42,495 bases of DNA, from the IMG/VR virus record IMGVR_UViG_3300045988_027069. One strand, given 5' to 3'. Source of the stretch: a virus. The notes under the pieces were generated by a model. The model was not told the origin of the DNA. It saw nothing but the letters and a program-made list of their open reading frames with translations, and ran no database searches. Position numbers and translations under genes: made by a program. This document shows, one piece after another, positions 760 to 34,543 of this stretch (positions are counted from its first letter, which is position 1; each line of letters starts with the position of its first letter).

Positions 760-770
760 GTGGATAGAAG

Positions 771-1357: not shown

Positions 1358-1382
1358 ATAAATATCATAGTAACAGTGGGAT

Positions 1383-1904: not shown

Positions 1905-1937
1905 TTCTAGTTCCCATGAAAAGGACTGAGTTTCCCA

Positions 1938-2354: not shown

Positions 2355-2557
2355 GATTTTTGAAAGGACTTGATTCAATGCCGCCTGTCGCCTCCGCCCC
2401 GTGACAGCGTGCCGTCGCTGCCTCGGGGCTTCGGTCTGCAAGCGATTGGGAGCCGCCTGTGCTTACAGCCTACCCCTTTTGCAATGTATTTGTAAAGATA
2501 TGGTTGCTTCTATTTGCGATCAGACGTCTGACTATTTCGGAAAGGAGGCGTACTTTT

Positions 2558-2980
2558 ATGGAAAAACTATCTGATTTGTGCCGCGATCAGAAGCAGACGA
2601 TCACGCCGCACAAGACGAATCAGGATATCGCCGAAAGTACTGATCTTTCCGTTGGTACCGTCGCCCAATTCTTTCGCGGCGACATCAAAAATCCTTCTGT
2701 GTACACTGCCGGGCCGATCTGCCGGGAGATGGGCGTATCGATGGATGCTTACTTTGATATTCCGCGCGAGGCTTCTCCGCCCGATCCGGACGCCGTTTCG
2801 GCAGAGGCCGACAATCTCCGCATTGAAAACGCAGCTCTTCATGAGCAGCTGAGGCAGCAGCAGAAATCCCTGCGTATGCACCGGCTTGTGACGCTTATCC
2901 TGCTCAGCATCGTCGCGCTTTGCGCTTTTGCTCTGGTGGTGGATATCCTGAGCCCCACCCTCGGTTGGTTCCGTGCATAA
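2558..2980 (+). CDS. Membrane-anchored helix-turn-helix protein (140 aa)
   Basis: SD GAAAGGAGG lies 9 nt before ATG 2558. HTH QDIAESTDLSVGTVAQFFRG, a coiled segment, and a C-terminal TM segment LVTLILLSIVALCAFALVVDIL. Confidence 0.7.
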   Translation: MEKLSDLCRDQKQTITPHKTNQDIAESTDLSVGTVAQFFRGDIKNPSVYTAGPICREMGVSMDAYFDIPREASPPDPDAVSAEADNLRIENAALHEQLRQQQKSLRMHRLVTLILLSIVALCAFALVVDILSPTLGWFRA

Positions 2981-13091: not shown

Positions 13092-13448
13092 TTACTCCAC
13101 GCGCGCCACGTTCCCGCTCGCAAGCGTGGTCCGGTTGCCGTGCGTGTACAAAATGTCATACCGGTAGACGCCGCGCGGGAACTTGGCCGTCACCTCGTCC
13201 GTGAACGCCAGCGTGACCGTGTTCTCGTCCGCGCCCGTGAAGGAGAACTCCTGCACGGCCTTCTTCGTCCAGTCGTAGAACGTCACCTTGATCGTGTCCG
13301 TCTGCCCGATGGTCACGTCCGCGCCGTCCTGGTCCTCCAGCTCCATCCGGAGCCGGAGGGAGAACGTGTCTCCCTCATACCAGCAAATGCACCCGTTCGC
13401 AATGCGCGGGCTGACCCGCGCGCCGGGGATCGTGTTTGCCGCGCTCAT
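13092..13448 (-). CDS. Hypothetical structural protein (118 aa)
   Basis: ATG 13448 overlaps the stop of the giant gene (ATGA). The remainder of track ORF 13092..14516 is an out-of-frame shadow. Confidence 0.7.
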   Translation of the reverse strand: MSAANTIPGARVSPRIANGCICWYEGDTFSLRLRMELEDQDGADVTIGQTDTIKVTFYDWTKKAVQEFSFTGADENTVTLAFTDEVTAKFPRGVYRYDILYTHGNRTTLASGNVARVE

Positions 13449-16400
13449 TTCTTGTCTCCTTTCCTTTTGTTGGCCTCCTGCCGCCACTTGATGATGTTGT
13501 CCCGCGCCTTGTCTGCGTCGCCTCCAATAGCCTTGTACGCGCTGATGTAGGCATTCTTGAGCCGTGTCGCCTCGTCTCCGGTCGCTGCCAGCCAAGCTTC
13601 CTTGAAGTGCGTCGTGAGCTGTGAGGACAGGTCGCCCTTGTCCACGCCGTGCTTCATATACTCCCTGGCGACCTTCCGCGTATCGGCCAGCACGCCCTTG
13701 TCCACTGCGTCGAGGAACTTCCCGTACTTCTTCCAGCCCTCGCCGCCCTTCCACTCTTCGAGCGTCCAGTAAACGTCGTGCTCGTCCTCCGCCCCGCAGT
13801 ACTCTTTCAGGAACGCGGCGGCGGTTTCCTCGTCTGCCAGCCCGTCTTGGAAATCCTGCTTCATCTGGCTCCGGAGGCTGCTGTTTACCGAGCTTTCCGC
13901 CTGCGCCTTTGTTTTTCCTCCGGCCATTTCTGCCGCAATGGCGTCCGCGCGAAGTGTCTCGTATTCCGACACGCCCTCTGTCGCTGCCTGATAAAGCTCC
14001 GTATGCCCTCCGCCCTCCATGATGATCTGGGCAAATTTGAACGCATCCAGAACACCGCGCTTCTGCGCGGCGCTGTAGCCCTGCTGATTTGCCCACTGCC
14101 GGAAGGCGTCCGCCTTTTCCGATGCCTTCATGCTTTCGTCTGCGTCTATCTGAAGCTTTTTCTGCGAAGCCTTGAGGTATTCGTCCATCCCGAGCACGCC
14201 GTTTTCTCCGGTCAGTGCGTCTATGCGTTCGCGCTCCTTGTCTCCGGCCATCATGAGGTAGTAGTACGCGCCCTGACCGGCCGTGGATACCTTGGAGGAA
14301 AGCAGCATATTCAGTTTGTCCAGCTTCGAATCCTCGCCGTCTCCGAGCTTGGAGATCCTGCGGATAAGCCTGTAGCTCTCCTCCTTGTCCGCGCCTGCCG
14401 CGATCATGGCTTGATATGCGGTCGTCTGCTTTTCTCCGATGGCCCGCTCTTCTCCGGCGTAATAGCGCCCGGTCTCGCTCAGACCGTTCGGGCCGAATAC
14501 GACCGCCTGTATCCACTTTCCGATGTTCTTATTGTCTACCGGATAACGAAGCTTCGTCTGCTCTCCGTAGCCCTGATACACGCCGCCTCGAAGCATCGCG
14601 TCGATACCCCGCGCTGTTTTCTTGATCTGGCTGCCGCCGGGTATCATTTCAGTCCCGACGTCGAACGTCGCCTTTGCGATGTCCTGCGCGCTTTTGCCGC
14701 CCTTGACGGCATTGATCCACTTGTCGAGTGCTTTCGTCGGGATCGCCGCCGGAAGGGAATTGTCGCCCCAGCCGATCAGCGCGGAAGCATTCTGCAAATA
14801 GGGGATATCGTTTGCGATATCGCCGCCTGCGGCCTCCAGCGCTTTCCACCCGTCAAAGCTGCGCTCTTCGTTTTCTGTCCCGAAGAGCCGTTCGCCCGTG
14901 AGCTTTTCCCATCCGTCGTCCATGACCGTCCGCAGCGCGTCGTTGACTGGCAGGCCGTACCCGCTCGCAACGAAATTCGACGTGATCCCCAGCACATCGA
15001 ACTGCGCCGGTGTTCCTCCGTATGTCTCATCCGAGAGCCTGTTCATAATAAACGCCGCGATCAGATATTTGACAATGACGCCCGCGAGCGCCTTGATCGC
15101 CTTGTCCTTGCCGTACTTCTTCGCCATCATCCGGAAGTCGAAGCCCGCCGTGTCCTGTGTCAGGTGCTCCCACGAGTTGGCAACTTCAAGCTGGAAGGTG
15201 TTCACAAGCTGCATGACCGGACTTTTGGAGTTGAACGCGACCGGCTTTGCGCCCTTCGAGCGGTCGCCCATGACCGCCGCGCCGTATTTGTCGGCGTAGC
15301 GCATGGCCTGCTCGTGCGTCATGCCCTTCTGGATGCCCTCCAGATAGGCCGCCCGCACTGCGATCGTCGATACCATGGCGTCCGCGAACTCCTGGGCCTG
15401 TCCCACCTTGTCGAGCGCCCACTCGTACATATTCTTTTCATCCGTGACAAGAAAGTGTACGCCCTTCTTGCTGGTCAGATAGTCGCTTTCCATTGCGAAG
15501 TCCGCCTTGCGGAGCTGTCCGGTCACCATGTCCTTGACGGCTGCCGCCGTGTTCCGGACGCCCTTTTCCGCGACAATGACCGGCAGCTGCGCCGTCTGGT
15601 TGAGGATCGTTGCAATGTTTCCCGCGACCTTCGCCGCTCCGAACCCTCGTGTGAGCCGGTTTCCGAAATTCAGGGCCTTTCGCCCGAAGTCTGCTTCCGT
15701 GGAGCGGTCTCCCATGGTCTGCTTCCCAGCGAGAATATTTGCGTAGTTGTCCAGCCACACGACAAGGTTAGAGTAAGTGCTTTTGTTTTTTGCGTCCTCG
15801 TACAGCTTGTCCAGCTCCGCTTCGATCATCGTGTCCAGCTCCGCCTGATCTGCGATTGTCCCGTGCGGAAGCTTTCCTTCCTGCTGCAAATAAAGAAGCT
15901 GTTCGTCCGGAAGCTTTTCCCGCAGCCATGTATACCGGTCAATGTCGAAGCTGATATCTTCCGACGAATACCGGCGGCGCAGGTAGTCGCTCAGCGCGCG
16001 CACCGTCATGATATCGTCCGTGTGATAGAACACCTCGGACATATACGCAACGTAGCTTTCAAAGCCCTTGGCTGCGTCAAAGTTGTATGTCTCGCTTGTT
16101 CTGTGCAGGAAATACGGATTCCAGCGCTTGTTTGGCTTGAAGTTCGCGGTCAATCCGGCAATGCTGGTAGGCAGCGTCACCGTATCCTCGTTGAGGCCCA
16201 GCGCTTTCAGTGCCGAGTCGAGCGCGCCACGGCTCTCTTCCGACTGCATATGCGGCGCGTAGTTTTGAATGAATCCGATCGGCTCGTATCCGTGCGCCAC
16301 GAGGAAGTCGTTAATTGCCGCGTAAAATTCGTTGTATTTCTGCGTGTATGCCTTTGCGGCGTTGTCGATCTTCACCGCGTCGATCTTGCCGTCTGCCATC

Positions 16401-19400
16401 ATGCGCAGCGCCCCGACCCACGAGGCATACATCTTCGCAAGCTGCTTTTCGTTCTTGTTGAGGTGCTCGCTCTTCGCCGCCTCGCTGGCCTTCATACCAT
16501 CCGCAATCTTCAAGCCTGCCTTGGTGATCTGTGGATTTCCCGGCATATCCCCGAGCAGTGCCTCCGTTGCCTTGCCCTCCATCACGAGCTGTACAAGAAT
16601 GCTCTCCTCATGTGTCAGCTCCGACTTCCTGCCCGTTGAATCCGCGAATTCTCGCACATCGTCAAACTGCCGGTTGATAAACCGTATCCTCTCAGATTCG
16701 TTCCCCTTGATCGGGTCGAAGATCGCCTTGTTGATCTTCTCGCCGGTCTCGTCTCCGAAGATTTTCAGCATGTTCCGCTGCGCTGTCCGGTGGTTGAGCG
16801 TGAACATATCCTGCACTTTATTGTCCTTGACGTCCTTGAACAGCGTCTCCAGCACTGCCGTCGTGTCCTGCCGGATGGATTTCCGCTGCGCTGCAAGCCG
16901 ATCCTCTCCCAGCGCCGCTTCGGCGTTCATGTAATCCACCAGACTGAGCACGACGCGCTTGCTGAACCCTTGCGGGATGTCCTGCATATCAAACACGCCG
17001 TCCGCGATCTGCCTTGCAAACGCGACTTCCTTTGCGGTAGCGCCCAGCCGGTCTATCGCGCGGTTGACCTCCTTTTTGGCCTGCTTGAACGCCTTGTCCA
17101 TCTCAATGAGCGTCTGCGTTTTCCCGTATCTGCCTACGGAGCGTTCGACCTTCACGCCCATTTTTTCGAGCGCGCCCGTACTCTTGAAGTCATTCCGGCT
17201 GCTTTCCTGCCAAGCCTGACCCTTTGCCTCTGCGCTCATGGCTTGAATTCTTGCCGGGATGCTTCCCTCGGCAAGCTTTCTCCGCATCATCCAGAATGTC
17301 GCCTCGTCAAGCCGCTGTCCCTCCGGCACAGTCTCGGCATAATACTTGTATACATCCTGCATGAACTTCGTGTTCTGGACAGTCTCCGCCCGGTACGTTC
17401 CGTCTGCATTTGGGAATTGCAGCGTCAGCGTCTTTGTGGATCGATCCGGCTTTGTCACGAAATCCAGCAGCGCCTTGGTGTACGCCTTTCCGTTTCCGGC
17501 CCAGTCCGCAGCGCGTGCGCCCTGCGTCACGATGCCGACCCTTACGCCCGGCGGCGTAATGCCCATCAGCCGGTAAAACGGATTTGGATCACTGCTGTAC
17601 GCCCAGTCTGCCTTTGCGTCAAAATTGAAGATCGGCACGCCCGCCGCCGCTTTCTTCGCCGCATCCTCCGTCGCCGTGCCTGCCTCTGCATCCGTCTCCG
17701 TATCAGCAGGGGAGTAGCGCTGTTTCTGCTGCGCCTCTTCATATGCCTTTGCGAATGTGGTTTTCCCGTCGGCTGCCCCCGATGTGTAGCTTGACGCTCC
17801 CGATTTTTCCCACTTGACACCTGCTATAAAGTTGCGTATATTGGTAGTGAAGTCACCGCCTTGTATGGCTGCCAGCGAATTGGCCGCTGGTACCCCAGCA
17901 AGCGCGGCTTGGCTTCTTTTTTTATCCAGATACAGAAGCCGCCCGTCCGATGCTGCTGCCTCAAGGTCACTGATCAGAGCTGCACGGTCATAGCTGGTGA
18001 TTACCTTGTTCGCGTCGATGCGCTTCCCATTCAGTGTGCCCTTTGTGTTAAGCGTCTCAATGACGACAATCGGGCCGCCTTTCCCAGCCTCTCCAGTGAC
18101 CAGAACGATATTGCTGGCACGTTTCCCGTTTGCCCCGGCGGTGTCGGCAAATGCGGCAACGGGGTTTTCCGATGCGTTCAGCACCCGCTGCAGGCCATCT
18201 GCGCCGAGTCCGTGGTAGTTGACGTTCTGCCTGTACCGGCCATCTTTCTTTGCCTGTGCCTCGGTCGCCATCGCAGAATATGCCTTGTTCGCTGGCATTG
18301 TGACGTGCAGTGCATCTGCGCCGATCACATCCGTCAGAAAGTTCGACGTCTCCCCGATGTAGACTTCCCCGCTTTCCGCCTTGTATGTCCCGTCGAACAC
18401 CTTCCGTAGATCTTCGCCCAGTCTGTCGCTTATAGAATATCTCTGATTCTTCGTCGGCTTCTCTGCATCCGGTTCCGCTATGCTTTCTCCCAAAATTGCC
18501 CGCACCGTCTCTGTGAACTTTGTCGCGTCCGCATCCGTATACCGGAGCATTCTTCCGGCGGCGTCTGCAAGGACTTCCTCCGTAGCGATGTTGAAAAGCG
18601 CTTCCTCGCTCATGCCCTCATAGACGCCGCGCATCCGCTTGACGTACTGCCCGGCAATCGCCATCAGCTCCGATTCGCTGAAACGGTCAGCCACCGCCTG
18701 CGCAGCTGCGTTCCTCTGCTCCGTACTCAGATCATGGAAAAGCGCATGATCGATCAGATTTTCCATCGCCCACTTTGTGCAGTCCGCGCGCACAGTGATC
18801 TGCCGCGTTCCGGTGTCTATGAACTCATCCACCGCCGTTCCGTTCGCAAGCCGAATTCTTCCCATGACGATATTGAGCGACGCTCCACGGGCCTCCACGG
18901 CCTTCTGGAGCGCTTTTTCATGCTCCCCATACGCTTCCACCGGGATTTTCAGCAGCGACTTTGTGGTGTCTCCGCCTTTCAGCCCCGCTTCTGCCGGGCT
19001 GATGTTTTCTGCGCCAAGATCCCGCGCACGATTGCGGAGGCGAACTGTCTCTCCTTGTCGCTCAAGGGTGCGTTCGATTTCTGAGCCTGCGCCCATGCGT
19101 CTACTCTGTCCTCCGGAATATACGCTTTCTGTCCGTCCTTCGCCGTTACGGCGACTAGCTTCCTGCTGTCCATACTGTTCCGTACCCCTTTCTGTATCCT
19201 CCTGAATTACCGTCTGCGCAGCTTTCTGCTGCGGCATTGCCGCCTCCTGTGCTGCCTGCATGGTTCCCTGCTGCTGGGCTTCTCTCGCTGCCTGCCGCGC
19301 ATCCCGTTCGTCCGCATACTGGTTGTACGTCTGAAAAGCCGCCTCTTCCTGCGCGGCCTGATCTGCCTTTGCCGCCGCGTCAATGACCGCCTGCACCTCT

Positions 19401-21325
19401 GCCGTATCCGGCATCTGACCGGCATTGACCTTCTCCATGACCGCCTGTGCGGCCTCTGCGGTCGCCTGATCCCCGCGCTCCTTTGCCATCGACTCAACGG
19501 CGTCCATGACCTGTCCGATCACGTTCAGCTGTTCGCCCTTGTTGTATGCCTCTGTGAGCTTGTTCGTCCCCGCATACGCGCCGGACATGGCAAGACCGGA
19601 GATACCGCCCGCTAGGAACGAAAGCCCGTCCTCTTTCAGCATATCGGCCAGCGTCAGCGCAAGCGCCTTTTCCTTCGTATTGCCCTTCGAAAGATACTCC
19701 GCATACGCGCCCATGACCTCGCCCCGGTCGTGCTTTGCCGCAACGTCGTAGATGCGGTTGAGCCAGTTGGACGCGATCTCTTCCGCGCCCTCGGACGCGA
19801 AGGCACGCAGCGCTTTTTTCCACACCTGTTTTCCGCTGAGCATGGTCTCAATGATGTCGCCCACGGAGTATTTCTCCGTGAATCCCTCGATAGCGCCCTC
19901 TACGATGCCGTCAATAAGCGCCTCCTGATTGGACTTGCCGCGCTGAATGCCCTCATAGACGGAATCTGCTGCGACCTGCGACCCCATCACCCAGTTCATC
20001 GTCTCTGCCACCGCCGAGGACGCCGCTTCTCCGCTGAGTCCTGTCGTTCCGACGAGCGCTGTCGAGACGGCCATGTTGACCGCGCTGTCCAGCGCGGATG
20101 TTCCTGCCTGATACAAAAACTGTCCGACCGGCCCCATGCCCTCCATGACGCCGCTGCGGATACCGCTCGAGACGTGCGTCGCTGCGTACATTGGGCTGTA
20201 GATGTTCGTCGGCATATCTGCGTTCTGATATCCGCCGAGTCCCTTCGGCAGAATGCCGCGAAGCGATTCGATGTTTCCAAGCGCCTTGAACGGCGCCATC
20301 ATCGACGACGTTACCGTCGAGAAAACAGGCGCATCCTGTCCGAACTGCTGCGCACCCGACATGCGCATCTGATAGTCCTCGAAATCCTCTAAGTACTTTT
20401 CGTATTCTGCCAGCCGTCCGATCTGATCCTCAGAATACCCCTTCTGCTGGAGCCTGTGCTTCGCGTCCGTTTTTTTCAGAAGATTCGTCCCGTTGATGTC
20501 TTTCAGCAGATTTCGCGTCTCTGTATCCAGCGTGCCGACGGCGTTCTCCGCCTGTCCAAGCGCTCGTGTGGAATCCAGCGCCGCTTTTTGGGTCTCCAGC
20601 GTGTCGATCTCGCTCTGTATGTCCATGACCCCTCGAGCCTGCCTGCGCGTCCCGTTTTCATCGGTGTACCAAGCCGTCCCGTTCTCGTCAAACTGATAGT
20701 CTCGGAAATGCTCGTCGGATTTCTGCTCATATAGCTGATCCAGTTGCTTCTGCATTTCTGCCGAAGTCCGCTTCATGCCGCGCAGTTGATCCGGAAGGAC
20801 CGTCTCCCTGTATCGCTTTTCCTGCTCCGCAGCCCGTCTTTCCAGCTCTCCGTCGAACTGATTCAGGCCGATCAGGCGGCTGTAGTCCTGCCCGGCATTC
20901 GTCGCCGCCTTCTGGGCCGCCGTGCCGGTCTGCACCTTGCGCTGCTGCTGACGTTCCTTTTCCTGCAATGTCCGCCGGTACCCGCTCATCTGGTCGTGGT
21001 TGATGGAGCCAATGATCTGGTTCTGCCGCTCCTGCATCGTCCTGAGGTACCCGCTCAGCTGGTCATGGTTGATCGAATCCGCGATCTGCTTGTACTGCTG
21101 ATACGCCGCCTCATAGCTCTGCGGCGTCGCTTTCTTGGTGCTCGTCCGGTAATCCGGATTATACGGGCCGTTCTTGACGTTCTGCCCGCCGCCGTTGCGC
21201 AGATAATCGTCAAGCAGTGCCTGACCGTTTGTGTTTCCGCTGCTGGACTGTCTCGAAATGCCGTATCCTGTCTCCTGCTTATACTGATCGAGAAGGTCCC
21301 GCCCTGTTTGTTTCTTCTTCGCCAT
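13445..21325 (-). CDS. Giant multidomain virion protein (2,626 aa): tape-measure/ejection-protein-like with polyvalent-protein-like architecture
   Basis: Single uninterrupted ORF with SD GAGGA. Q/Y/R-rich coiled N-terminus with an internal repeat SINHDQ(L/M)SGY.RT.QE, Gly-rich hydrophobic segments and several globular-looking blocks. Confidence 0.8.
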   Translation of the reverse strand: MAKKKQTGRDLLDQYKQETGYGISRQSSSGNTNGQALLDDYLRNGGGQNVKNGPYNPDYRTSTKKATPQSYEAAYQQYKQIADSINHDQLSGYLRTMQERQNQIIGSINHDQMSGYRRTLQEKERQQQRKVQTGTAAQKAATNAGQDYSRLIGLNQFDGELERRAAEQEKRYRETVLPDQLRGMKRTSAEMQKQLDQLYEQKSDEHFRDYQFDENGTAWYTDENGTRRQARGVMDIQSEIDTLETQKAALDSTRALGQAENAVGTLDTETRNLLKDINGTNLLKKTDAKHRLQQKGYSEDQIGRLAEYEKYLEDFEDYQMRMSGAQQFGQDAPVFSTVTSSMMAPFKALGNIESLRGILPKGLGGYQNADMPTNIYSPMYAATHVSSGIRSGVMEGMGPVGQFLYQAGTSALDSAVNMAVSTALVGTTGLSGEAASSAVAETMNWVMGSQVAADSVYEGIQRGKSNQEALIDGIVEGAIEGFTEKYSVGDIIETMLSGKQVWKKALRAFASEGAEEIASNWLNRIYDVAAKHDRGEVMGAYAEYLSKGNTKEKALALTLADMLKEDGLSFLAGGISGLAMSGAYAGTNKLTEAYNKGEQLNVIGQVMDAVESMAKERGDQATAEAAQAVMEKVNAGQMPDTAEVQAVIDAAAKADQAAQEEAAFQTYNQYADERDARQAAREAQQQGTMQAAQEAAMPQQKAAQTVIQEDTERGTEQYGQQEASRRNGEGRTESVYSGGQSRRMGAGSEIERTLERQGETVRLRNRARDLGAENISPAEAGLKGGDTTKSLLKIPVEAYGEHEKALQKAVEARGASLNIVMGRIRLANGTAVDEFIDTGTRQITVRADCTKWAMENLIDHALFHDLSTEQRNAAAQAVADRFSESELMAIAGQYVKRMRGVYEGMSEEALFNIATEEVLADAAGRMLRYTDADATKFTETVRAILGESIAEPDAEKPTKNQRYSISDRLGEDLRKVFDGTYKAESGEVYIGETSNFLTDVIGADALHVTMPANKAYSAMATEAQAKKDGRYRQNVNYHGLGADGLQRVLNASENPVAAFADTAGANGKRASNIVLVTGEAGKGGPIVVIETLNTKGTLNGKRIDANKVITSYDRAALISDLEAAASDGRLLYLDKKRSQAALAGVPAANSLAAIQGGDFTTNIRNFIAGVKWEKSGASSYTSGAADGKTTFAKAYEEAQQKQRYSPADTETDAEAGTATEDAAKKAAAGVPIFNFDAKADWAYSSDPNPFYRLMGITPPGVRVGIVTQGARAADWAGNGKAYTKALLDFVTKPDRSTKTLTLQFPNADGTYRAETVQNTKFMQDVYKYYAETVPEGQRLDEATFWMMRRKLAEGSIPARIQAMSAEAKGQAWQESSRNDFKSTGALEKMGVKVERSVGRYGKTQTLIEMDKAFKQAKKEVNRAIDRLGATAKEVAFARQIADGVFDMQDIPQGFSKRVVLSLVDYMNAEAALGEDRLAAQRKSIRQDTTAVLETLFKDVKDNKVQDMFTLNHRTAQRNMLKIFGDETGEKINKAIFDPIKGNESERIRFINRQFDDVREFADSTGRKSELTHEESILVQLVMEGKATEALLGDMPGNPQITKAGLKIADGMKASEAAKSEHLNKNEKQLAKMYASWVGALRMMADGKIDAVKIDNAAKAYTQKYNEFYAAINDFLVAHGYEPIGFIQNYAPHMQSEESRGALDSALKALGLNEDTVTLPTSIAGLTANFKPNKRWNPYFLHRTSETYNFDAAKGFESYVAYMSEVFYHTDDIMTVRALSDYLRRRYSSEDISFDIDRYTWLREKLPDEQLLYLQQEGKLPHGTIADQAELDTMIEAELDKLYEDAKNKSTYSNLVVWLDNYANILAGKQTMGDRSTEADFGRKALNFGNRLTRGFGAAKVAGNIATILNQTAQLPVIVAEKGVRNTAAAVKDMVTGQLRKADFAMESDYLTSKKGVHFLVTDEKNMYEWALDKVGQAQEFADAMVSTIAVRAAYLEGIQKGMTHEQAMRYADKYGAAVMGDRSKGAKPVAFNSKSPVMQLVNTFQLEVANSWEHLTQDTAGFDFRMMAKKYGKDKAIKALAGVIVKYLIAAFIMNRLSDETYGGTPAQFDVLGITSNFVASGYGLPVNDALRTVMDDGWEKLTGERLFGTENEERSFDGWKALEAAGGDIANDIPYLQNASALIGWGDNSLPAAIPTKALDKWINAVKGGKSAQDIAKATFDVGTEMIPGGSQIKKTARGIDAMLRGGVYQGYGEQTKLRYPVDNKNIGKWIQAVVFGPNGLSETGRYYAGEERAIGEKQTTAYQAMIAAGADKEESYRLIRRISKLGDGEDSKLDKLNMLLSSKVSTAGQGAYYYLMMAGDKERERIDALTGENGVLGMDEYLKASQKKLQIDADESMKASEKADAFRQWANQQGYSAAQKRGVLDAFKFAQIIMEGGGHTELYQAATEGVSEYETLRADAIAAEMAGGKTKAQAESSVNSSLRSQMKQDFQDGLADEETAAAFLKEYCGAEDEHDVYWTLEEWKGGEGWKKYGKFLDAVDKGVLADTRKVAREYMKHGVDKGDLSSQLTTHFKEAWLAATGDEATRLKNAYISAYKAIGGDADKARDNIIKWRQEANKRKGDKK

Positions 21326-26887: not shown

Positions 26888-28771
26888 TCAATCCGGCTGT
26901 GTGCTCTTCTGCGACTGCTCCCGCGCATCCGTCACGGTCTTTGCCTCCGTGCCCGCTTCTTCGCCGGGCATTTCTGCCTTTGCGTTTCCGGCCGCCGGAG
27001 CCTGCGCCTGCGCATCCGCGCCAAGGATCTGCTGTGCCAGCCCGTCCGCCATGGCCGGGTCGAAGCGCTCCGCCAGTGCCAGCGCCATCTGCTGCCAGCT
27101 GGCCAGCTCCTGCTGGAGCGTTCCGTTCTGTGCGATCTTCTGGCTGATCTCGTCCTTGCCGTCAAAGTCCATCATGTCGAGCGTCGCCAGCGCCTGATCC
27201 GCCCTTGTCGGGTCGAAGAATCCGAGCTGATAGAATTGCAGCGCCAGTTCGTTCTGGCTGAGCCTCGTATACTCGGAGGATTTCTGCGCCGATACCTCGA
27301 TATCGAATACCGGCTTGCGCCATGTCACGTCTCCGCCAAGGCCCAGCAGCTCCTGCTGCTTGAGATTCTGGTTCGAGTAGGTTACATATTCCTCCGTCCC
27401 GAGCTGGCCCCGGATGCGGAACTTGCGCGGCAGATCGTAGAACTGCCGTATCCGCTCGATCACCATGCGGATGAGCCGCGCGTATGCCCGGTATGCCGAG
27501 CGTGTCGCGTCCTTGGAGCTGCGCCCGGACGCCTCCTGCAAGGCGGCAATGGCGCTGGCCGCCGTCACGCCGGAGCTTACCGAGCCGTTGTTGACGTCCG
27601 TGTTGCCGGTCGTCCATTTCAGCTCCTCGATCTTGTTCTGAATGACGTTTATGTAGTTTGCCGACAGGGGACTGACCGTGATCGGCATCACCGAGTCCTG
27701 TCCCAGATTGCCGTCCGCGTGGACGAACGGCTTTCGCCAGTCGGCGTATTCCTTTTCGTTGATACTTCCGTCGCTGCGGATGAACCAGCGCGGCGTGGAC
27801 GCCATCACGGAGTTTTTCAGGATCGCCTGATTGAGCAGGTCGATCTGCTCCTGTGCGCTCTTGCCGATGTCGATATAGCCGTATCCGGCAATCGATCCCT
27901 TCACCGGGAAGAGCGCGTCGATCACGAACGGATAATCTCCGTCCTCGTAAAGCCCGCTCTGCATATTCGGATCGTTCTCGGTTGCAGAAAGCACCGTCTC
28001 GCCCACGAATTTGCAGAAGTGGAGCACGCTCTTTCCGTTCTCGATCTTCTTGTAGTACCAGTCCACCACGAGCGATTTGTCCGTCGTATCCACCTGATCG
28101 TCCGTTTCGTACTTGCTGACAAAGGTGTTGTCGCTGCGCAGCGTGTCGCCGACCTGCGGATACCGCTGCTTGAGCACGTCGTTGTCCACCAGCTCCGCGT
28201 AGAAAAGGTTTTTGCTCTTCTGAATGTCGGTCACGCCCGGCTCCCAGAAGAGGTTGAGCAGATCGATCTCCCGGATGGATACATCCCCGAGTCCGTTGAG
28301 CTTGGAGCTGTCCCAGAACACGCCCCATGCCAGCGTTCCCTGCTTCATCTTCGTCCAGCATGAGTCGGAATACGTCTCCTCGAAGTCGTTCTGTTCGAGG
28401 ATCACCGGCACAATGCTGGTGAGCATCGCCGCCTCGGAGCGGTCGTCCGGCTCTCTTGGCCGGATGGCAGGCTCCGGAAACGCCGCCACGGCGTCCGCGT
28501 GCTTGCCCATAATGACGTTGAAGAGCCACGCCGACCGCCACTGCGGGTCGTATGGATTCCCACTCGGACTCATTTCCTGCCAGTGCTGGAGCTTCCACCA
28601 CTGCTCGCAGGCGACGAGCCGATTTTCAAGCGCCTTCTTTCCGGACTTGTACTTGGTCAGCGTATCCATAGCCGTCCGGATCTGCGCCACGCCGATGGGC
28701 TGCATCGTTTCGCCCGCTTCAATGTCGCCCAGCACGTCCTGTATCGTCGTCATGTTCGTGTTTTCGTCCAT
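26888..28771 (-). CDS. Portal protein (627 aa)
   Basis: Size and position, N-terminal KYKSGKKALENRLVACEQWWKLQHW block, and an acidic/Ala-rich C-terminus. SD AAAGGAGAG. Confidence 0.8.
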   Translation of the reverse strand: MDENTNMTTIQDVLGDIEAGETMQPIGVAQIRTAMDTLTKYKSGKKALENRLVACEQWWKLQHWQEMSPSGNPYDPQWRSAWLFNVIMGKHADAVAAFPEPAIRPREPDDRSEAAMLTSIVPVILEQNDFEETYSDSCWTKMKQGTLAWGVFWDSSKLNGLGDVSIREIDLLNLFWEPGVTDIQKSKNLFYAELVDNDVLKQRYPQVGDTLRSDNTFVSKYETDDQVDTTDKSLVVDWYYKKIENGKSVLHFCKFVGETVLSATENDPNMQSGLYEDGDYPFVIDALFPVKGSIAGYGYIDIGKSAQEQIDLLNQAILKNSVMASTPRWFIRSDGSINEKEYADWRKPFVHADGNLGQDSVMPITVSPLSANYINVIQNKIEELKWTTGNTDVNNGSVSSGVTAASAIAALQEASGRSSKDATRSAYRAYARLIRMVIERIRQFYDLPRKFRIRGQLGTEEYVTYSNQNLKQQELLGLGGDVTWRKPVFDIEVSAQKSSEYTRLSQNELALQFYQLGFFDPTRADQALATLDMMDFDGKDEISQKIAQNGTLQQELASWQQMALALAERFDPAMADGLAQQILGADAQAQAPAAGNAKAEMPGEEAGTEAKTVTDAREQSQKSTQPD

Positions 28772-28807
28772 GTTTCTCTCCTTTCGGTGTCCAAGTCTGA
28801 CACCGCG

Positions 28808-30565
28808 TCAGGCGTCGCTTCCGGTTTCCAGAACGCGTCCGATGCTGTAGAGCTTAAACGGCCCTGTGCCGGTGATCTTGAATCGCAGATGGTCGCATCG
28901 CTGCGGGCGGATCGGCAGCAGGAACGTCCGCAGTCCGTGTCCGTCCATGTGTCCGGCGTGCCGGAACTCCCCGCAGGAGTCGTACTCGATCCAGAAGTCG
29001 CACGCGCTTCCGATCGGCAGCTGCATCCGCAGATTCAGCCGTGAGATGTATTTCTTCCCGACGAGGCCGCACGTCATGATCCCGGTCGTCGCCGACCACT
29101 GGATCTCCGGCTCGACATTTCCGCCGCCGGAGCCGTAGGCCGTGATAAGCATCCCGTTTACGTGGAGCATATAAAGCTCATCGTCGAGCGCGGCGAACTG
29201 CGTCACATGTAGTCCGTCCTCCCGGTGCCAAAGCCCCTTGAGCGTGTCATATACGAAAAGCTGCCATGCATCTTTGCTGTCCTGCATTGAGATGAAATAC
29301 TTCCCGCGCACGCCTCCGGCAGCCGCCTTGCGGTAAAGCTCCGGCCCGAAGGCGTCCGAGATCAGATAGGGGAGAGAGCCGTCATAGACGCACACGCCGT
29401 CCCGCGCCTTGTAATAGAGCTTATCGGCGATAACGGTCAGGCTCTGTTCGCTTCCGCGCTGCACGCCTCGGGCCTTGATCTCCTTTACCTGATGCGCGCC
29501 CTGCGCGCTCGGATAAATGCGGTGAAAGCAGTCCTCCTTGAAGAAGATCGGACTGTCTGCCAGCGTCGCGGCTCCTGTGAAGCGTCCGTCCGTGCCGCAG
29601 CTTGCGCGCCATGAGTCGGTCGAAATGCCCTGATAGCACTCCCAGTTCTTGAAATCGCCCAGCTTGCAGCAGTACAGCTCGTTGACGGTTTTCCCGTCGG
29701 ATACGCCGTACCGGCAGCCCCAGAGCCGGTTACCGCTCTCGGTGATGTAGTCCATCTTCGGCACACGCCGGGCGGCCTTGACCTCGCCGGTGCTCTGGCT
29801 CGCGTCCGCGTCCACGATCCCGACGATCACAAGGTAGTTGTCGCCGACGTCCTGCAAAACGTGGGAGCCGTTGAGCTTTTCGACCTGATTCGTCCCGTCG
29901 AGGCCGCTGATCTGCACGCCGTCATACTTCTTGAAGCCCGCTCCGATGCCGTTTGCCTCCAGCTTGACGTATACCGTCGGGATGCTCACCCACTGGCTCT
30001 GGACGGAGCTCCACTGTTTCAGCTCATGCTTTCCCGTGTCCAGCCAGTAGGCGTCGTTCGCGGCGTCCTCCGGCATCGCCTGCTGCCGGTATGTGATCGT
30101 GATAACGGCTCCGTCCACGGTGCAGACCTTGATGGAAAGCGCCGTCTGCGTGCAATCCACAAGGTTTTCATGGCCCATGTAGCCGTTGTCCGTGTAGTCC
30201 TCGGTGTTGAAATACCATCCGTCCGGGAAAACGCAGATGTACGCGCCCATGGATACCATCTGTTTTTCTCCCTCGGAGAGCAGCACCCCGCCCATGTAGG
30301 GGGACATGGACAGTGCGTTGTACCACAGCACGCCGTCCTCGATCCATGCCAGCGCGTCCTTTGCCAGCAGCCCCTGAATGCCGGAGAAATCGCCGACCAT
30401 TGCGCGGGCCGCGCGCTGAGACAGCAGGGGATAGTAATCCGAGGTGAGATTCTGCATCTCGTAGAATTCGCCGTCGGCAATGCGCAGGTTGTGGTTGTAG
30501 CCCGCGAAGGTCTCTGTCACCATCTGTTCCTGCGCAGGCGCGCTCAGTTCGGGGTATCGCATCAT
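28808..30565 (-). CDS. Large structural-module protein (585 aa) between TerL and portal, possibly beta-propeller-like
   Basis: SD GGAGGAAAG before ATGATG at 30565/30562. Repetitive YxxxDG / LYxxxxDG strands. No named family. Confidence 0.7.
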   Translation of the reverse strand: MMRYPELSAPAQEQMVTETFAGYNHNLRIADGEFYEMQNLTSDYYPLLSQRAARAMVGDFSGIQGLLAKDALAWIEDGVLWYNALSMSPYMGGVLLSEGEKQMVSMGAYICVFPDGWYFNTEDYTDNGYMGHENLVDCTQTALSIKVCTVDGAVITITYRQQAMPEDAANDAYWLDTGKHELKQWSSVQSQWVSIPTVYVKLEANGIGAGFKKYDGVQISGLDGTNQVEKLNGSHVLQDVGDNYLVIVGIVDADASQSTGEVKAARRVPKMDYITESGNRLWGCRYGVSDGKTVNELYCCKLGDFKNWECYQGISTDSWRASCGTDGRFTGAATLADSPIFFKEDCFHRIYPSAQGAHQVKEIKARGVQRGSEQSLTVIADKLYYKARDGVCVYDGSLPYLISDAFGPELYRKAAAGGVRGKYFISMQDSKDAWQLFVYDTLKGLWHREDGLHVTQFAALDDELYMLHVNGMLITAYGSGGGNVEPEIQWSATTGIMTCGLVGKKYISRLNLRMQLPIGSACDFWIEYDSCGEFRHAGHMDGHGLRTFLLPIRPQRCDHLRFKITGTGPFKLYSIGRVLETGSDA

Positions 30566-30777
30566 CTTTCCTCCATCATGTTCAGCGGATCGATCCACTG
30601 CGGCTTTTCCGGCACGGCCAGCATCGGCTTCACCGGCCTCGACATGCAGAAATACCGCCATTCGTCCGCGCAGTTGTGGGAGATCACGCCGCCTTGTATT
30701 ACAAAATCGTGCGTTTCCTCCACTTCCATGTTGTATACATCTGCGCATCCTGCACGCCTAACCGATTTGACCTTCAT
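30562..30777 (-). CDS. terL: Split-intein C-fragment (35 aa) fused to the TerL C-extein (36 aa)
   Basis: SD GGAGGAGGA lies 6 nt before ATG 30777. MKVKSVRRAGCADVYNMEVEETHDFVIQGGVISHN carries intein blocks F/G, then CADEWRYFCMSRP... carries the conserved TerL nuclease motif. Confidence 0.75.
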   Translation of the reverse strand: MKVKSVRRAGCADVYNMEVEETHDFVIQGGVISHNCADEWRYFCMSRPVKPMLAVPEKPQWIDPLNMMEER

Positions 30778-31538
30778 CCCGGATCCTCCTCCGCCGAAAT
30801 GCCGCCTTGCAGTTCGGCCCACAGAAATGATTCGAGCCTTGCGGGTAAACGAACTTGGTCTGATATGTCTTTCCGCAGAAGCTGCAAACGTATGTTTGAA
30901 CCTTCCGCTTTTCCCAATTTTCAAGCCCCAGCTTTGCGTGGAAGCCCCTTCCTGCATCCGAGCCGTGCCACACGCGGGCGGCCTCTCTGGCTGCACCGAT
31001 GCAGGCCGCGCTTTCTGCGCGCCTTTCCGGCGTGCTCATGTGCCCGCTCAAATGCTCGTGTCCTTCCAGCAGCTCAAGATTCGAAATGTCGTTGTTGCTC
31101 CGATCTCCGTCCTTGTGGTGAATGTGATATCCTTCCGGTATCTCTCCGTTGTGATACTCCCACACGGCTCTGTGGAGTCGGTGTCCCTTTCGCTGGAAAT
31201 ACGTTCCGCACAGGTAATACGTCACTCCGTCAAACTTCTGCGCCGTCGCGCTGATCTTCTGAATTTCCATATGTTTTTACCTCCATCCCTGCCGACAGAT
31301 CCCCGGCGCGTATCCAATCGCCGTTTGGAAGCATGAATCTGTGGTCATCGGTGCATTGAATGATCGTTCCGTCCTCCAACTCGATTTCCAGAAGCTCCGC
31401 GTCTTTTCGCGTTCTTCGCACATCTCCGTATCTGTGGAGCTGCCCGTCCGAGGACATCACCCGCCCCGTTGTCCCGACGAGGCTTTCCATCGTCCTGTAT
31501 CCATTTTCCGTGAGCACCAACGTGTCCCCCACGAGGCA
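30673..31538 (-). mobile_element. Intein/homing-endonuclease insertion in terL (IntN 31233-31538, HNH gene, IntC 30673-30777)
   Basis: The boundaries are set by Cys1 (TGC 31538..31536, after ...LEDH) and by the HN|C junction at 30673/30672. Confidence 0.75.
30758..31270 (-). CDS. Free-standing HNH homing endonuclease (170 aa)
   Basis: HIHHKDGDRSNNDISNLELLEGHEH is an HNH motif, and there is a C-terminal CxxC...CxxC zinc ribbon. It has its own SD GGAGGT 8 nt before ATG 31270, in a different frame from both intein halves. Confidence 0.85.
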   Translation of the reverse strand: MEIQKISATAQKFDGVTYYLCGTYFQRKGHRLHRAVWEYHNGEIPEGYHIHHKDGDRSNNDISNLELLEGHEHLSGHMSTPERRAESAACIGAAREAARVWHGSDAGRGFHAKLGLENWEKRKVQTYVCSFCGKTYQTKFVYPQGSNHFCGPNCKAAFRRRRIRDEGQIG

Positions 31539-32792
31539 ATGATCCTCAAGGCTCGTATCCAGATCTTCCGGCTTGTGTTCATCGTACATGAGCAGCGGGA
31601 TCGTCCGGAGGAACGCCTTGCAGGTGTTGAAAACGTACATACGCGGGTATCCGTTCTCGTCGAATTGCAGCCGGTAGTGGCATTGCATCCAGCCCGGAAT
31701 GCGTTTGTTGTCGCCCGGCGTGAAATATACGCGGTATCTGGCCGCTGTCTGCGCCACGCTTTCTCCGCGCGAAGCGTCCCAGATCGACGGGTCTGCCACT
31801 CCGGTGATCTGCTTTCCGGCCAGCCATGGATGCTCTCGCTCCATCTTCGCGATCTCCTGAAACTGCACGTCCGGCGACCACTTGACGCCGGTGTTCGGCT
31901 CGCGTGTGCATCCGTAAAGCTCCAGAATGCGGTAGATCACGCCGTCGTAATCGACGGCCCACCACGCGCAGGAGAACGGCTTCCCGTATCCGAAGTCGTA
32001 GCTCCGGCAGATCGTCCAGCCCGGATCGGGCGTGAACGGCTCGATCACATGGGTGTTCTGCCGTGTCTGATAGCCCTCCGGGTTGTTGATAAAATCCTCG
32101 AAGAACTGGCCCTCGTAAATGTCCCACCGGCCCTCCAGCCATGCCTGCCGGAGCTTTTCCGGCAGCTTTTGCAGCGTCTGGACGTACTCCGGCTGCGTCT
32201 CCATGAGCGCCTTGTTGTCGGTCACCAGCGCCTGGATGAACGTGTAGTTCTCCGGCTTTTCGCCTTCCTCAAAAATGCGATCGATGAACAGCCGCTTGAA
32301 ATATCCGTGGCTCTGACCGCCCGGATTGAGCGTGTAATAGGTGCGCTTCGGGAATCCGTTCGTACCGCGTACCGTGGTGTCGATGGCATCGAGCCACTCC
32401 TTTTTGAGCTGCGCGGCCTCGTCGATGAATACCACATCGTACTCCGCGCCCTGATACTGGAGCATATCGTTATCGTTTGCGCAGTAGCCGAACTTGATCG
32501 TCGAGCCGTTTCGGAATGTCAGGAGCTTCTTGTCCTGCGCATACCGCGCAACGCCGTTCAGCTCCTGCCTGAGCTGGTTGATGTGGTTGTTGAGCAGCTC
32601 CGGATACGTCCGGCGCACGATGAGGATCTTGATCCCCGGCCAGCTGAGCGCCAGCAGCTTCGACTTTGCGCGGACGGACCAGCTTTTTCCGCCGCCTCTG
32701 GCCCCTCCGTAGGCCACATAGCGCGTCAGCGCTTCCATGAAGCGCCTCTGCTTGTCGGAGATGCGCGAAAAGTCGAGCGTTACCTTCGCCAT
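31230..32792 (-). CDS. terL: Terminase large subunit N-extein (418 aa) fused to the split-intein N-fragment (102 aa)
   Basis: Walker A GGARGGGKS and Walker B VVFIDEA. After ...DTSLEDH comes CLVGDTLVLTENG (block A) and IQCTDDHRFMLPNGDWIRAGDL (block B), then a TGA stop. Confidence 0.85.
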   Translation of the reverse strand: MAKVTLDFSRISDKQRRFMEALTRYVAYGGARGGGKSWSVRAKSKLLALSWPGIKILIVRRTYPELLNNHINQLRQELNGVARYAQDKKLLTFRNGSTIKFGYCANDNDMLQYQGAEYDVVFIDEAAQLKKEWLDAIDTTVRGTNGFPKRTYYTLNPGGQSHGYFKRLFIDRIFEEGEKPENYTFIQALVTDNKALMETQPEYVQTLQKLPEKLRQAWLEGRWDIYEGQFFEDFINNPEGYQTRQNTHVIEPFTPDPGWTICRSYDFGYGKPFSCAWWAVDYDGVIYRILELYGCTREPNTGVKWSPDVQFQEIAKMEREHPWLAGKQITGVADPSIWDASRGESVAQTAARYRVYFTPGDNKRIPGWMQCHYRLQFDENGYPRMYVFNTCKAFLRTIPLLMYDEHKPEDLDTSLEDHCLVGDTLVLTENGYRTMESLVGTTGRVMSSDGQLHRYGDVRRTRKDAELLEIELEDGTIIQCTDDHRFMLPNGDWIRAGDLSAGMEVKTYGNSEDQRDGAEV

Positions 32793-33289
32793 TGCGCGAT
32801 CTCCTCCGGAAGTTCGATCTCCGTCTCCGTCGTACCGCCTGCCTTTTCATCCCATCCGAACTTTCGTTCCAGATGGAACTTTGCGCCGTTCGCGGCGGAG
32901 CTGTCGAGGCGCTGGATGTTGTAGATCTCGATTCGCGCCCCTGCGCGCGCGCAAGTCCTGGCGAATTCCTCCGATGTGCGCATCGCATCCCATTGCTTTT
33001 CGTCCAGGCCCAGCGCGCCCAGCAGCTCCGGCATGCACGGAGGCCGTATCCATATCTCGCGCATGAGCGGCTTTTTCCCGCGCATCACCGGCACGACCGC
33101 CGTCTGCGTGTGTCCGTATTTGTCGAGCGCGGGGCATTGCATCACGATCCGTTCTCCGTTTTTGATAAACTCCCGATCCTCCAGCACCGGCTCCGTCCTT
33201 GTCACCGGCTCCCTGTAGCAGATCGATGTGAAATACCGGTCGATCGCGGAGCGAAGCTCCCGCGCGCTCTTGTACACCTTTTCGTTCAG
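32780..33289 (-). CDS. terS: Terminase small subunit (about 169 aa), start uncertain (possible CTG)
   Basis: The N-terminal YKSARELRSAIDRYF block is typical of this TerS type. The only SD (AAGGAAGGGGG) lies 8 nt before CTG 33289. The track ORF extends to 33490 through a terminator. Confidence 0.65.
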   Translation of the reverse strand: MNEKVYKSARELRSAIDRYFTSICYREPVTRTEPVLEDREFIKNGERIVMQCPALDKYGHTQTAVVPVMRGKKPLMREIWIRPPCMPELLGALGLDEKQWDAMRTSEEFARTCARAGARIEIYNIQRLDSSAANGAKFHLERKFGWDEKAGGTTETEIELPEEIAQWRR

Positions 33290-33418
33290 GCTCTTCGCCC
33301 CCTTCCTTTTTCGGAGACTCTGCCAGGCGCGGAGGTTCCCAACTCCGCGCCCAGTAGGAAGGAAAGAACATGGCTCGTACCGCCTCGGGCCTTCGCCCGG
33401 CACAGCCTCCGAAATATG

Positions 33419-33455
33419 CAAAAAAATCCGGACCCCCGCTTTCGCGGAGATCCGG
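33419..33455 (-). terminator. Rho-independent terminator separating the early/middle genes from the packaging operon
   Basis: Minus strand: CCGGAtcTCCGC-gaaa-GCGGGggTCCGG followed by ATTTTTTTGC. Confidence 0.8.
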
Positions 33456-33521
33456 CTTTCGCTCGTCCATATTGCCCTTCGGATGCACAAGCAGCCGACG
33501 ACCTCCGCAGCAGCGGACAGA

Positions 33522-33796: not shown

Positions 33797-34543
33797 TCAA
33801 TTTTTCATCCTTTGGGGATCGAATACATATTTATAGTATTGGTATCCGTACTGTGTGGCTCTGGCCTCAACAAGTACATAGCCGCGCGGGGCGACCGGCG
33901 GATGCTCCGGGCTGTACTCCCGGACGGCCTCGGTGGCAGGCTCCGGCTCCGGCTTTGTGCAGGTGCGGCTTGCCTTGTATCTGTGGCCTCCGAACTCCTT
34001 CCGCCAGTGGCCGTGCAGGTAGTTCGCCAGCGCGGTGTAGTCCTGCCCGTGATCTATCTTTTCTCCATTCTGGTTTACATAATAGTTGTGCTTGCGAAGG
34101 TGCTTGCTCTCGACCACGCTTCCGAGGCCCCACAGCTTCGCAATGGCGTCCTCCGGGATGCCGTCGGAGATCATGTGGATGTGGAAGCGGTTCGTAGATT
34201 TTCCGCGCCCGTATACCATCACGATCTTTGCCTCCGGGTATCGGTATGTAAGTCTGCGCCAGAATCTATCACGGATACACTTGATCTCTCCCACGGTATG
34301 CACCTCAAACTCCGCGCTGAGCGTAAGCGTGGAGTAGAGGCTGGTCGGGCCGAAATTTGCGTTGATAAGCGCCGCGAACTTGCCCTCTGAAATTTTGGAG
34401 TTGAATTCGTCGCGCTCTGCCTGTGTGGCGAAGCGCGGCTTTCTCGGCTTGCTGCTCTTGATATCCGCCTGCTCGCTCACGTTGTATACGATCTGGGTGC
34501 ATACCGCCCCGGCGAAAAGCCGCCGCTTGTGCCTCTTTGTCAT
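33797..34543 (-). CDS. HUH-type Rep-like (rolling-circle initiator) endonuclease candidate (248 aa)
   Basis: Ordered motifs YSTLTL (motif 1), NRFHIHMI (HUH) and DYTALANYLHGHWRKE (Tyr motif). Confidence 0.5.
   Translation of the reverse strand: MTKRHKRRLFAGAVCTQIVYNVSEQADIKSSKPRKPRFATQAERDEFNSKISEGKFAALINANFGPTSLYSTLTLSAEFEVHTVGEIKCIRDRFWRRLTYRYPEAKIVMVYGRGKSTNRFHIHMISDGIPEDAIAKLWGLGSVVESKHLRKHNYYVNQNGEKIDHGQDYTALANYLHGHWRKEFGGHRYKASRTCTKPEPEPATEAVREYSPEHPPVAPRGYVLVEARATQYGYQYYKYVFDPQRMKN

Follow-up and report, generated by a model that had tools for sequence, protein, structure and literature searches.

The large terminase subunit (TerL) of the phage represented by IMG/VR record IMGVR_UViG_3300045988_027069 is probably made by protein trans-splicing. 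In this stretch of 42,495 nucleotides (nt), which we analyzed whole and refer to as the window, the only terL gene is interrupted by an 866-bp, apparently mobile element composed of a split class-1 intein and an HNH endonuclease gene. A preliminary description of the window had already read the locus as a terL fractured by a split intein, and our analysis supports that interpretation. It builds on the observed anatomy of the locus, its conservation in related phages, purifying selection on each of its parts, the coexistence of occupied and empty alleles, and the lack of a second terL in the window.

Reading of the open reading frames (ORFs) reveals three consecutive translation units on the minus strand, encoding TerL residues 1-418 fused to an N-terminal intein half (IntN), the HNH protein, and a C-terminal intein half (IntC) fused to the TerL C-extein. 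Translation reproduces the layout originally reported, including the coordinates and Walker motifs of the first ORF, the Cys that follows ...SLEDH with a stop 102 amino acids (aa) later, the 170-aa HNH ORF opened by GGAGGT, 8 nt and ATG 41 nt before that stop, and the 71-aa ORF that overlaps the HNH 3' end behind GGAGGAGGA and 6 nt. The features of the locus are as follows.

31230..32792, minus strand: ORF encoding the TerL N-extein and IntN, 520 aa.
31539..32792, minus strand: TerL N-extein, aa 1-418, comprising the ATPase and most of the nuclease domain, with the C-terminal end ...EDLDTSLEDH.
32682..32708, minus strand: Walker A motif GGARGGGKS, aa 29-37, from translation; nearly invariant in alignment A2.
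32415..32435, minus strand: Walker B motif VVFIDEA, aa 120-126, from translation; D124, E125 and A126 invariant in alignment A2.
31230..31538, minus strand: IntN, 102 codons and a TGA stop, from Cys1 in CLVGDTLVLT (block A) to CTDDHRF (block B, T-x-x-H).
31279..31284, minus strand: Shine-Dalgarno (SD) sequence GGAGGT of the HNH gene, 8 nt 5' of the ATG at 31268..31270.
30758..31270, minus strand: HNH_3 gene, 170 aa, in the +1 frame relative to IntN and overlapping the IntN ORF by 41 nt.
30784..30792, minus strand: SD sequence GGAGGAGGA of IntC, 6 nt 5' of the ATG at 30775..30777.
30562..30777, minus strand: ORF encoding IntC and the TerL C-extein, 71 aa, +1 relative to HNH, starting 20 nt before the HNH stop.
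30673..30777, minus strand: IntC, 35 codons, MKVKSVRRAGCADVYNMEVEETHDFVIQGGVISHN, with blocks F and G and a terminal His-Asn.
30562..30672, minus strand: TerL C-extein, Cys+1 followed by ADEWRYFCMSRPVKPMLAVPEKPQWIDPLNMMEER, 36 aa and a stop that overlaps the start of the next gene (ATGA).
30673..31538, minus strand: the entire inserted element, 866 nt, a length that is not a multiple of 3; BLASTN alignments to empty-site genomes (L043-L045) break here.

The coding is compact: the SD bases GGAGGAGGA double as codons for an RRRR stretch of the HNH protein, and IntC ends in ...DVYNMEVEETHDFVIQGGVISHN (...GGVISHN) immediately before CADEWRYF....

Profile searches, a check put forward in the preliminary description, identified the flanking pieces as intein halves. 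Residues 419-487 of the 520-aa ORF matched TIGR01445 (intein_Nterm) at 39.2 bits against a cutoff of 24.5, and the 71-aa ORF matched TIGR01443 (intein_Cterm) at 20.7 bits against 15.6. When joined, IntN and IntC passed the threshold of the Pfam model Intein_splicing (PF14890; 45.5 versus 35.8), below which each half fell singly. Both ORFs also touch NCBIfam models of the split cyanobacterial DnaE-n and DnaE-c proteins, with the 71-aa ORF aligning to positions 2-38 of the split DnaE-C model PRK07373. Against the PDB, phmmer aligned the joined halves with DnaE, DnaX and RecA inteins at values down to 2e-8; the best matches were the DnaE inteins 7qil (2e-8) and Npu DnaE (4kl5 and 2keq), and the Spl DnaX mini-intein could be aligned from end to end.

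The residues required for splicing are in place, namely C419 (Cys1), T481-D-D-H484 (CTDDH), the terminal ...SHN of IntC and the Cys at +1, and Cys1, T-x-x-H, the terminal HN and Cys+1 are kept in all relatives inspected. The net charge is -9 for IntN and +4 for the first 12 aa of IntC, and an acidic IntN with a basic IntC N-terminus is the polarity familiar from DnaE split inteins. The cyanobacterial DnaE split inteins (Npu, Ssp), the closest among solved structures, share this polarity as well as the split point (~102/36), in keeping with the early remark that pieces of 102 and 35 aa have the sizes of natural split inteins. The DnaE halves, however, lie at distant loci, whereas the halves here occupy one operon with only the HNH gene between them, and the host protein and lineage differ. 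An AlphaFold2 model of the joined halves, predicted from a single sequence, was all-beta with a mean pLDDT (the program's per-residue confidence score) of only 58. As a side observation, the 71-aa ORF matches phrog_28563 ("unknown function", 1.1e-11) and its first 36 aa also match phrog_18112 ("recombinase"); existing phage protein families therefore probably contain hidden, IntC-tagged fragments of split genes.

The gene between the intein halves encodes a protein that matches PF13392 (HNH_3) at 1.6e-17 over aa 31-69, HIHHKDGDRSNNDISNLELL..HEH, and phrog_15471 at 8.9e-35, and that ends in a zinc-ribbon-like CxxC...CxxxC motif. All of its best 120 homologues are free-standing proteins of 162-207 aa. 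The exact protein is named "homing endonuclease" at NCBI (DAW18878.1); indeed, proteins of the window are already present there as third-party annotations ("Large subunit terminase" and "homing endonuclease"), with the link between them unremarked. Searched against species-representative genomes, the HNH protein found one distant match only, in a metagenome-assembled genome (MAG) of the Muribaculaceae, and one intein-less relative carries the label of a Clostridiales MAG. A consensus fold over nine loci yielded a candidate hairpin at the ribosome-binding site, in which UGCUUCC (31327..31333, within the IntN codons for FMLP) pairs with the HNH SD GGAGGUA (31278..31284). None of the nine loci showed compensatory changes in these pairs, and both arms are also constrained by coding. 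A consensus scan for promoters and terminators inside the element found nothing beyond shuffled expectation.

Outside the element, the interrupted gene is recognizable as a terminase large subunit, with profile matches to Terminase_6N (3e-15), Terminase_3 (6.5e-10) and the phrog_2 terminase large subunit family (1.4e-38), and we found no second terL in the window. The TerL family alignment shows little or no variation at D266, D334, H418 and D421. The intein is placed directly after H418, inside the putative nuclease motif H418-x-x-D421, and the metal site would therefore be divided between two polypeptides until they are ligated. The preliminary description assigned the whole conserved nuclease motif to the C-terminal piece; D..RY is indeed supplied there, but the DH lies in the N-terminal piece. 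In SPP1 G2P, His400 and Asp403 bind Mn2+, and the H400A and D403N substitutions abolish nuclease activity (PMC2685612). Their H-x-x-D spacing is that of H418 and D421, a correspondence by motif only. Neither phmmer nor a profile search matched the TerL to a nuclease domain in the PDB (only the ATPase region aligned, to Sf6 gp2), Pfam nuclease-domain models found no match in the spliced TerL, and an AlphaFold2 model of the spliced protein from a 14-sequence alignment (pLDDT 41) was too poor for use. Since mapping onto solved TerL nucleases failed, the active-site argument rests on the invariant H-x-x-D and the SPP1 literature.

The arrangement is real and common in related phages. The 520-aa ORF retrieved two kinds of relatives, uninterrupted TerLs of ~450-455 aa and clusters that stop after the same Cys; among the best 120 TerL clusters, ~28 (58-98% identical) end 95-105 aa after it, and the 102-aa length of IntN and its terminal ..EV are kept in ~28 protein clusters. 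Contigs that belong to several TerL clusters, together with viral contigs scanned for the HNH protein, showed the three-ORF layout directly at 16 distinct loci, as well as at two others met again in a second collection. These include a distant TerL family (L026/L027) in which the first overlap is missing and the HNH gene opens 32 nt beyond the stop of IntN. Among loci whose TerLs are 58-98% identical, SDs and starts are kept, with the HNH SD present at every main-family locus. Translation of HNH begins at ATG or TTG (TTG in L004, L007 and L012) and that of IntC at ATG or GTG (GTG in L011), alternatives that may tune expression levels, and the overlap between HNH and IntC ranges from 3 to 37 nt.

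Each part of the element is under purifying selection in its own frame. Ratios of nonsynonymous to synonymous substitution (dN/dS, Nei-Gojobori method) between the window and locus L009 were 0.094 for IntN, 0.084 for HNH, 0.029 for IntC and 0.070 for the extein; across pairs they ranged over 0.09-0.28 for IntN, about 0.07-0.08 for HNH and 0.03-0.19 for IntC, with synonymous sites often saturated in pairs other than that of the window and L009. In every one of those other pairs, the proportion of nonsynonymous differences (pN) was far below that of synonymous differences (pS). The exact three proteins of the window occur on 15, 25 and 32 independent public contigs, and a variant of the 71-aa ORF differing at one residue occurs on 662. 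This recurrence excludes a sequencing or assembly artefact and makes the read mapping once proposed to rule out indels unnecessary. The layout is thus neither an assembly error nor a decaying gene, and the view that it comprises three translation units rather than one degraded intein holds, given the conserved SD sequences and starts, the purifying selection and the free-standing HNH homologues.

Empty alleles define the insertion site to the nucleotide. Proteins of 454 aa share a 90%-identity cluster with the 520-aa ORF, and one of them (P0245) equals the joined exteins of the window except for V4I and C419V, so that uninterrupted alleles have exactly the length (418 + 36 = 454 aa) predicted for the spliced product. 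The contigs that encode it (L043-L045, 42-43.5 kb) are 94-96% identical to the window in nucleotide sequence on both flanks, and BLASTN alignments to them break exactly at window positions 31540 and 30670. The empty site reads GAGGATCAC / GTCGCGGACGAATGG, and the occupied site in the window reads GAGGATCAT / 866 nt / TGCGCGGACGAATGG. The sequence GAGGATCACGTCGCGGACGAATGG is the predicted HNH target, GAAGATCTGGATACGAGCCTTGAGGATCACGTCGCGGACGAATGGCGGTATTTC likewise carries the empty site, and the HNH gene is absent from intein-less alleles. At the junction, empty and occupied alleles differ only by CAC>CAT (a synonymous His codon) and GTC>TGC (Val to Cys+1); in L044 the remaining 45 nt on either side are identical to the window. 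These two changes look like traces of co-conversion.

After EDH, the 86 intein-less relatives continue with VC (46), VA (38), IY (1) or CA (1), such that Val occupies the +1 position in 84 of the 86. The sole CA case (P0003, locus L006) has CAT/TGC without the element, which looks like the scar of a precise loss; the TerL N-extein of the window is 89% identical to aa 1-419 of this protein, and the C-extein aligns to its aa 415-451. A neighbor-joining tree of exteins, from a sample biased by the query, placed the intein-positive clade of the window among intein-less TerLs, with at least 4 changes of state by Fitch parsimony. Two further relatives show other configurations at this site. In a low-GC relative (L017, 2040..3080), the intein lies one codon further downstream (EDHA/C...HN/CDEIRY) with an IntN of only 93 aa, and it appears to use the native Cys of a VC-type TerL as its +1 residue. 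P0005 (466 aa) is a chimeric TerL whose first ~300 residues (to ...EPNTGVKW) are ~98% identical to the window, with ~5 differences, and whose nuclease part (DHIYDELRY, without Cys and without intein) comes from another lineage, possibly through a recombination that removes the homing target.

Cultured phages carry related versions of the element. A tblastn search of GenBank phages with the HNH protein and the 71-aa ORF showed that in Lactobacillus phage CL2 (L033, KR905067), the annotated "large subunit terminase" ends in ...AHDH/CLTGDTIV...VRVR and a stop, followed by an annotated HNH gene and, at about 2537..2774, by an unannotated ORF that reads ...VKSVRPIGTADVYNMEVESHHNFAVDGGFIVHN/CMDATRYF..., the same fractured layout as in the window. 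With its likely start at a GTG preceded by AGGAAG, the CL2 IntC would be ~48 aa long. In Brochothrix phage BL3 (L046, HM144386), the "putative large terminase" gp2 (727..2607) ends in an IntN (E = 9e-35), and the unnamed gp3 consists of an IntC (E = 9e-25) and the TerL C-terminus, beginning CIDATRY... (E-values from hidden Markov models (HMMs) built in this analysis). The two BL3 genes are 10 nt apart and HNH persists only as a remnant (tblastn E = 0.002); this split TerL intein appears to be unrecognized in the BL3 record. Since CL2 and BL3 are propagated phages, they indicate that the split arrangement is viable in vivo.

Other relatives have a contiguous TerL intein at the equivalent site, with an HNH homologue nested within it at a frame offset of 2:

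443..2842 of L032: gp2 of Clostridium phage phiCDHM19, contiguous intein with nested HNH.
984..3170 of L034: TerL of Tetrasphaera phage TJE1, contiguous intein with nested HNH.
L022-L025 and L029-L031: seven IMG/VR loci, contiguous intein with nested HNH.

In all of these, the in-frame translation over the HNH stretch is of low complexity. One of them (L030, 3..2783) has a single TerL ORF of 927 aa, cut by the contig end, that contains two inteins, with the HNH gene nested in the second. The empty, nested, fractured, HNH-decayed and scar states fit the stepwise scheme put forward by Dassa et al. 2009 (PMC2677866) and Gosselin et al. 2025 (bioRxiv 10.1101/2025.01.02.630785), in which invasion by a free-standing endonuclease gene leaves the intein either open in its own frame or split. 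We tentatively suggest, as a possibility somewhat short of probable, that one intein family at one H-x-x-D codon has been caught at every stage of endonuclease-driven intein splitting (an empty site, a contiguous intein with an out-of-frame HNH, a fractured gene, a split intein with a decayed HNH and a precise-loss scar), and that the element is polymorphic and probably actively homing within a single human-gut phage species.

Together, these features are best explained by the following mechanism. An HNH homing-endonuclease gene would have broken the intein coding sequence between blocks B and F, where endonucleases are usually inserted. Transcription of the late packaging operon would probably yield one mRNA, on which three independent starts, each with its own SD, would direct synthesis of TerL(1-418)-IntN (102 aa), HNH and IntC (35 aa)-TerL(419-454). 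The acidic IntN would bind the basic N-terminus of IntC to form the HINT fold, whereupon Cys1 would make a thioester, Cys+1 would attack it, the terminal Asn of IntC would cyclize, and formation of a peptide bond would leave a 454-aa TerL (...EDH-CADEWRY...) with the H418-x-x-D421 metal motif restored. The HNH protein, in turn, may cut the intein-less terL of co-infecting relatives at GAGGATCAC / GTCGCGGACGAATGG, and with the occupied allele as repair template, the element would then be transferred along with the adjacent CAT and TGC (Val>Cys+1).

Splicing itself is deduced here from sequence, and it could be that the TerL fragments act as a non-covalent complex in which the intein halves serve as a dimerization module. 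The work of Gibb and Edgell on phage Aeh1, as cited in PMC2677866, supplies a precedent, as there the separately encoded NrdA chains, with the HNH gene mobE between them, form an active enzyme. We consider this unlikely for the window, however, given that all splicing nucleophiles and assisting residues are kept despite saturating synonymous divergence, and that Val is replaced by Cys exactly at the +1 position of occupied alleles, a change needed only for splicing chemistry; moreover, the nuclease would probably be obstructed by a 137-aa HINT domain left so close to its H-x-x-D metal site. Programmed frameshifting is harder still to credit. The end of the first ORF, ...GTT TGA C, bears a loose resemblance to CUU UGA C, the site of +1 frameshifting in prfB, and two +1 shifts could in principle produce a contiguous intein-HNH polypeptide; alternatively, sequencing indels or gene decay could have disrupted such an ORF. 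Two frameshifts in series, however, would yield negligible product, and the same frames recur in dozens of independent assemblies, with SDs and starts conserved, and suitably spaced, for each ORF. The distant loci L026/L027 lack the first overlap altogether (32-nt gap), the second overlap varies in length, and HNH is selected in its own frame from its own start, all of which makes a single disrupted or recoded ORF highly improbable.

The HNH protein might instead be a packaging accessory nuclease, like HK97 gp74 of cos phages, with its place inside the intein incidental. Free-standing homologues do adjoin terS or terL in cultured phages such as PAE1, Shemara, Exiguobacterium phage vB_EauM-23 and Acinetobacter phage BP10, where we detected no intein. 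Yet near-isogenic intein-less phages keep the same packaging module without HNH, which is therefore dispensable for packaging; wherever the intein is present, HNH sits physically inside it, whether fractured or nested, and in BL3 the split intein survives next to a decayed HNH gene, as would be expected once a homing gene has become fixed. A packaging role as the reason for its position is accordingly a doubtful proposition, with little probability in our estimate. An intron removed at the RNA level has an even slighter claim. In other gut phages, group I introns that carry endonuclease ORFs often break up terL (PMC12880540), but an Rfam scan of 30300..32900 at E<=10 returned no intron family, the flanks are bona fide intein blocks, and since the HNH ORF overlaps both intein halves, no non-coding RNA is left for a ribozyme core, so that a group I or group II intron with an HNH ORF is scarcely conceivable here.

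Several points weigh against the trans-splicing and homing scheme that we favor. Co-transcription, trans-splicing, endonuclease specificity and homing are processes that we infer from the arrangement of the locus, as is the spliced 454-aa TerL, both in the window phage and in all relatives. HNH genes that adjoin terminase genes can also act as packaging cofactors. With neither structure prediction good enough to use, sequence motifs carry both the assignment to the HINT fold and the placement of the junction within the nuclease active site. The divergence of element and extein gives an inconsistent sign of horizontal transfer, the element being the closer of the two between the window and L011 or L018 and not between the window and L001, and gain can be told from loss only in part, clade by clade.

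The organization matches the fractured genes known from metagenomes, a resemblance pointed out at the start. Dassa et al. 2009 defined these genes from 26 ocean-metagenome loci, one of them a terminase (PMC2677866). Their IntN of 88-105 aa and IntC of 33-54 aa bracket the 102 and 35 aa found here, and the 3' end of their endonuclease genes overlaps the IntC gene start by 6-69 bp, compared with 20 nt in the window (PMC2677866). In contrast to our locus, their endonucleases were of GIY-YIG or Vsr-like type only (HNH and LAGLIDADG enzymes were said to be ones that "could" fracture genes, with none found), and their terminase was a gp17-like gene from Lake Gatun with an atypical break point and a 122-aa IntC (PMC2677866). 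The window differs further in that the HNH start also overlaps IntN (41 nt), that the source is a human-gut phage and that empty-site alleles of the same phage exist.

Whether split inteins have been described for a terminase, a question the preliminary description raised, can be answered affirmatively (PMC2677866, PMC11766414). GOS-TerL and AceL-TerL are naturally split phage TerL inteins with trans-splicing shown in vitro, and AceL-TerL shares the Cys1/Cys+1 pair of the window intein, whereas GOS-TerL uses Ser1 (PMC11766414). Both come from cold or marine metagenomes and are atypically split (IntN of 25-37 aa and IntC of 104-115 aa), unlike the canonical, DnaE-like 102/35 division seen here (PMC11766414). 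The nested-HNH relatives (phiCDHM19, TJE1 and the seven IMG/VR loci) fit the proposal of Gosselin et al. 2025, who reported out-of-frame or antisense endonuclease genes in actinobacteriophage inteins, that free-standing endonuclease genes invade intein coding sequences (bioRxiv 10.1101/2025.01.02.630785). Their out-of-frame case, however, was endonuclease VII-like and their HNH cases were in frame, whereas the intein frame in the window is closed and the intein truly split. The Aeh1 nrdA/mobE locus, as covered in that passage of PMC2677866, is similar in having an HNH homing gene between the halves of an essential phage gene in one operon, and different in that it contains no intein and its NrdA halves assemble non-covalently. 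By masking the HNH SD, the putative hairpin could keep endonuclease synthesis low, an effect reported for mobE, and it faintly hints at a further likeness between the two loci.

Fractured genes (Dassa et al. 2009) and split TerL inteins (GOS-TerL, AceL-TerL) are thus already known, and we found no description of an HNH-fractured terminase in the literature searched. What is new is the HNH-type endonuclease, the canonical 102/35 split, the insertion inside H-x-x-D, the abundance in gut phages, the recovery of all states and the cultured representatives. HNH-type fractured genes were predicted in the 2009 model and unobserved then, a gap that the present locus fills. The result would not surprise an intein specialist, though it is solid, useful and directly testable: comparison of occupied alleles with near-isogenic empty ones gives the presumed homing site at single-nucleotide resolution, and CL2 and BL3 carry versions of the element.

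In a common lineage of gut phages, an enzyme essential for virion assembly apparently exists only after protein ligation, which makes this, as it appears, a clear natural case of obligatory trans-splicing. If the staged scheme of intein splitting is true, HNH would also arm the phage against co-infecting relatives that lack the intein, whose only packaging gene it would cut, and the family would supply mesophilic, canonical Cys1/Cys+1 split inteins from culturable phages (CL2 and BL3). Canonical split inteins from 37 °C habitats are candidate tools for protein engineering. There are also consequences for annotation, as the C-terminal fragment of TerL is unannotated in CL2, unnamed in BL3 and of "unknown function" in PHROGs (phrog_28563), and the truncated or intein-bearing ORF, where it is used, will distort TerL phylogenies and completeness checks.

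The element lies within a packaging module that reads terS, the three ORFs, the 585-aa internal-virion-like gene and the portal gene; apart from the element, the empty-site genomes have the same gene order. Its neighboring genes in the window are the following.

32780..33490, minus strand: small terminase subunit gene (terS), directly upstream and overlapping the terL start; phrog_606, 1e-8.
26888..30565, minus strand: downstream packaging-module genes, encoding a 585-aa internal-virion-protein-like product (phrog_511, 3e-60) and the portal (phrog_156, 9e-77).

Two genes 5' of terS, a 248-aa ORF (33797..34543, minus strand) matches the replication-initiation family phrog_3584 (7.7e-33) and, weakly, a family of rolling-circle replication initiators. 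Elsewhere in the window, a 2626-aa ORF (13445..21325, minus strand) is very long for a phage genome of 42.5 kb.

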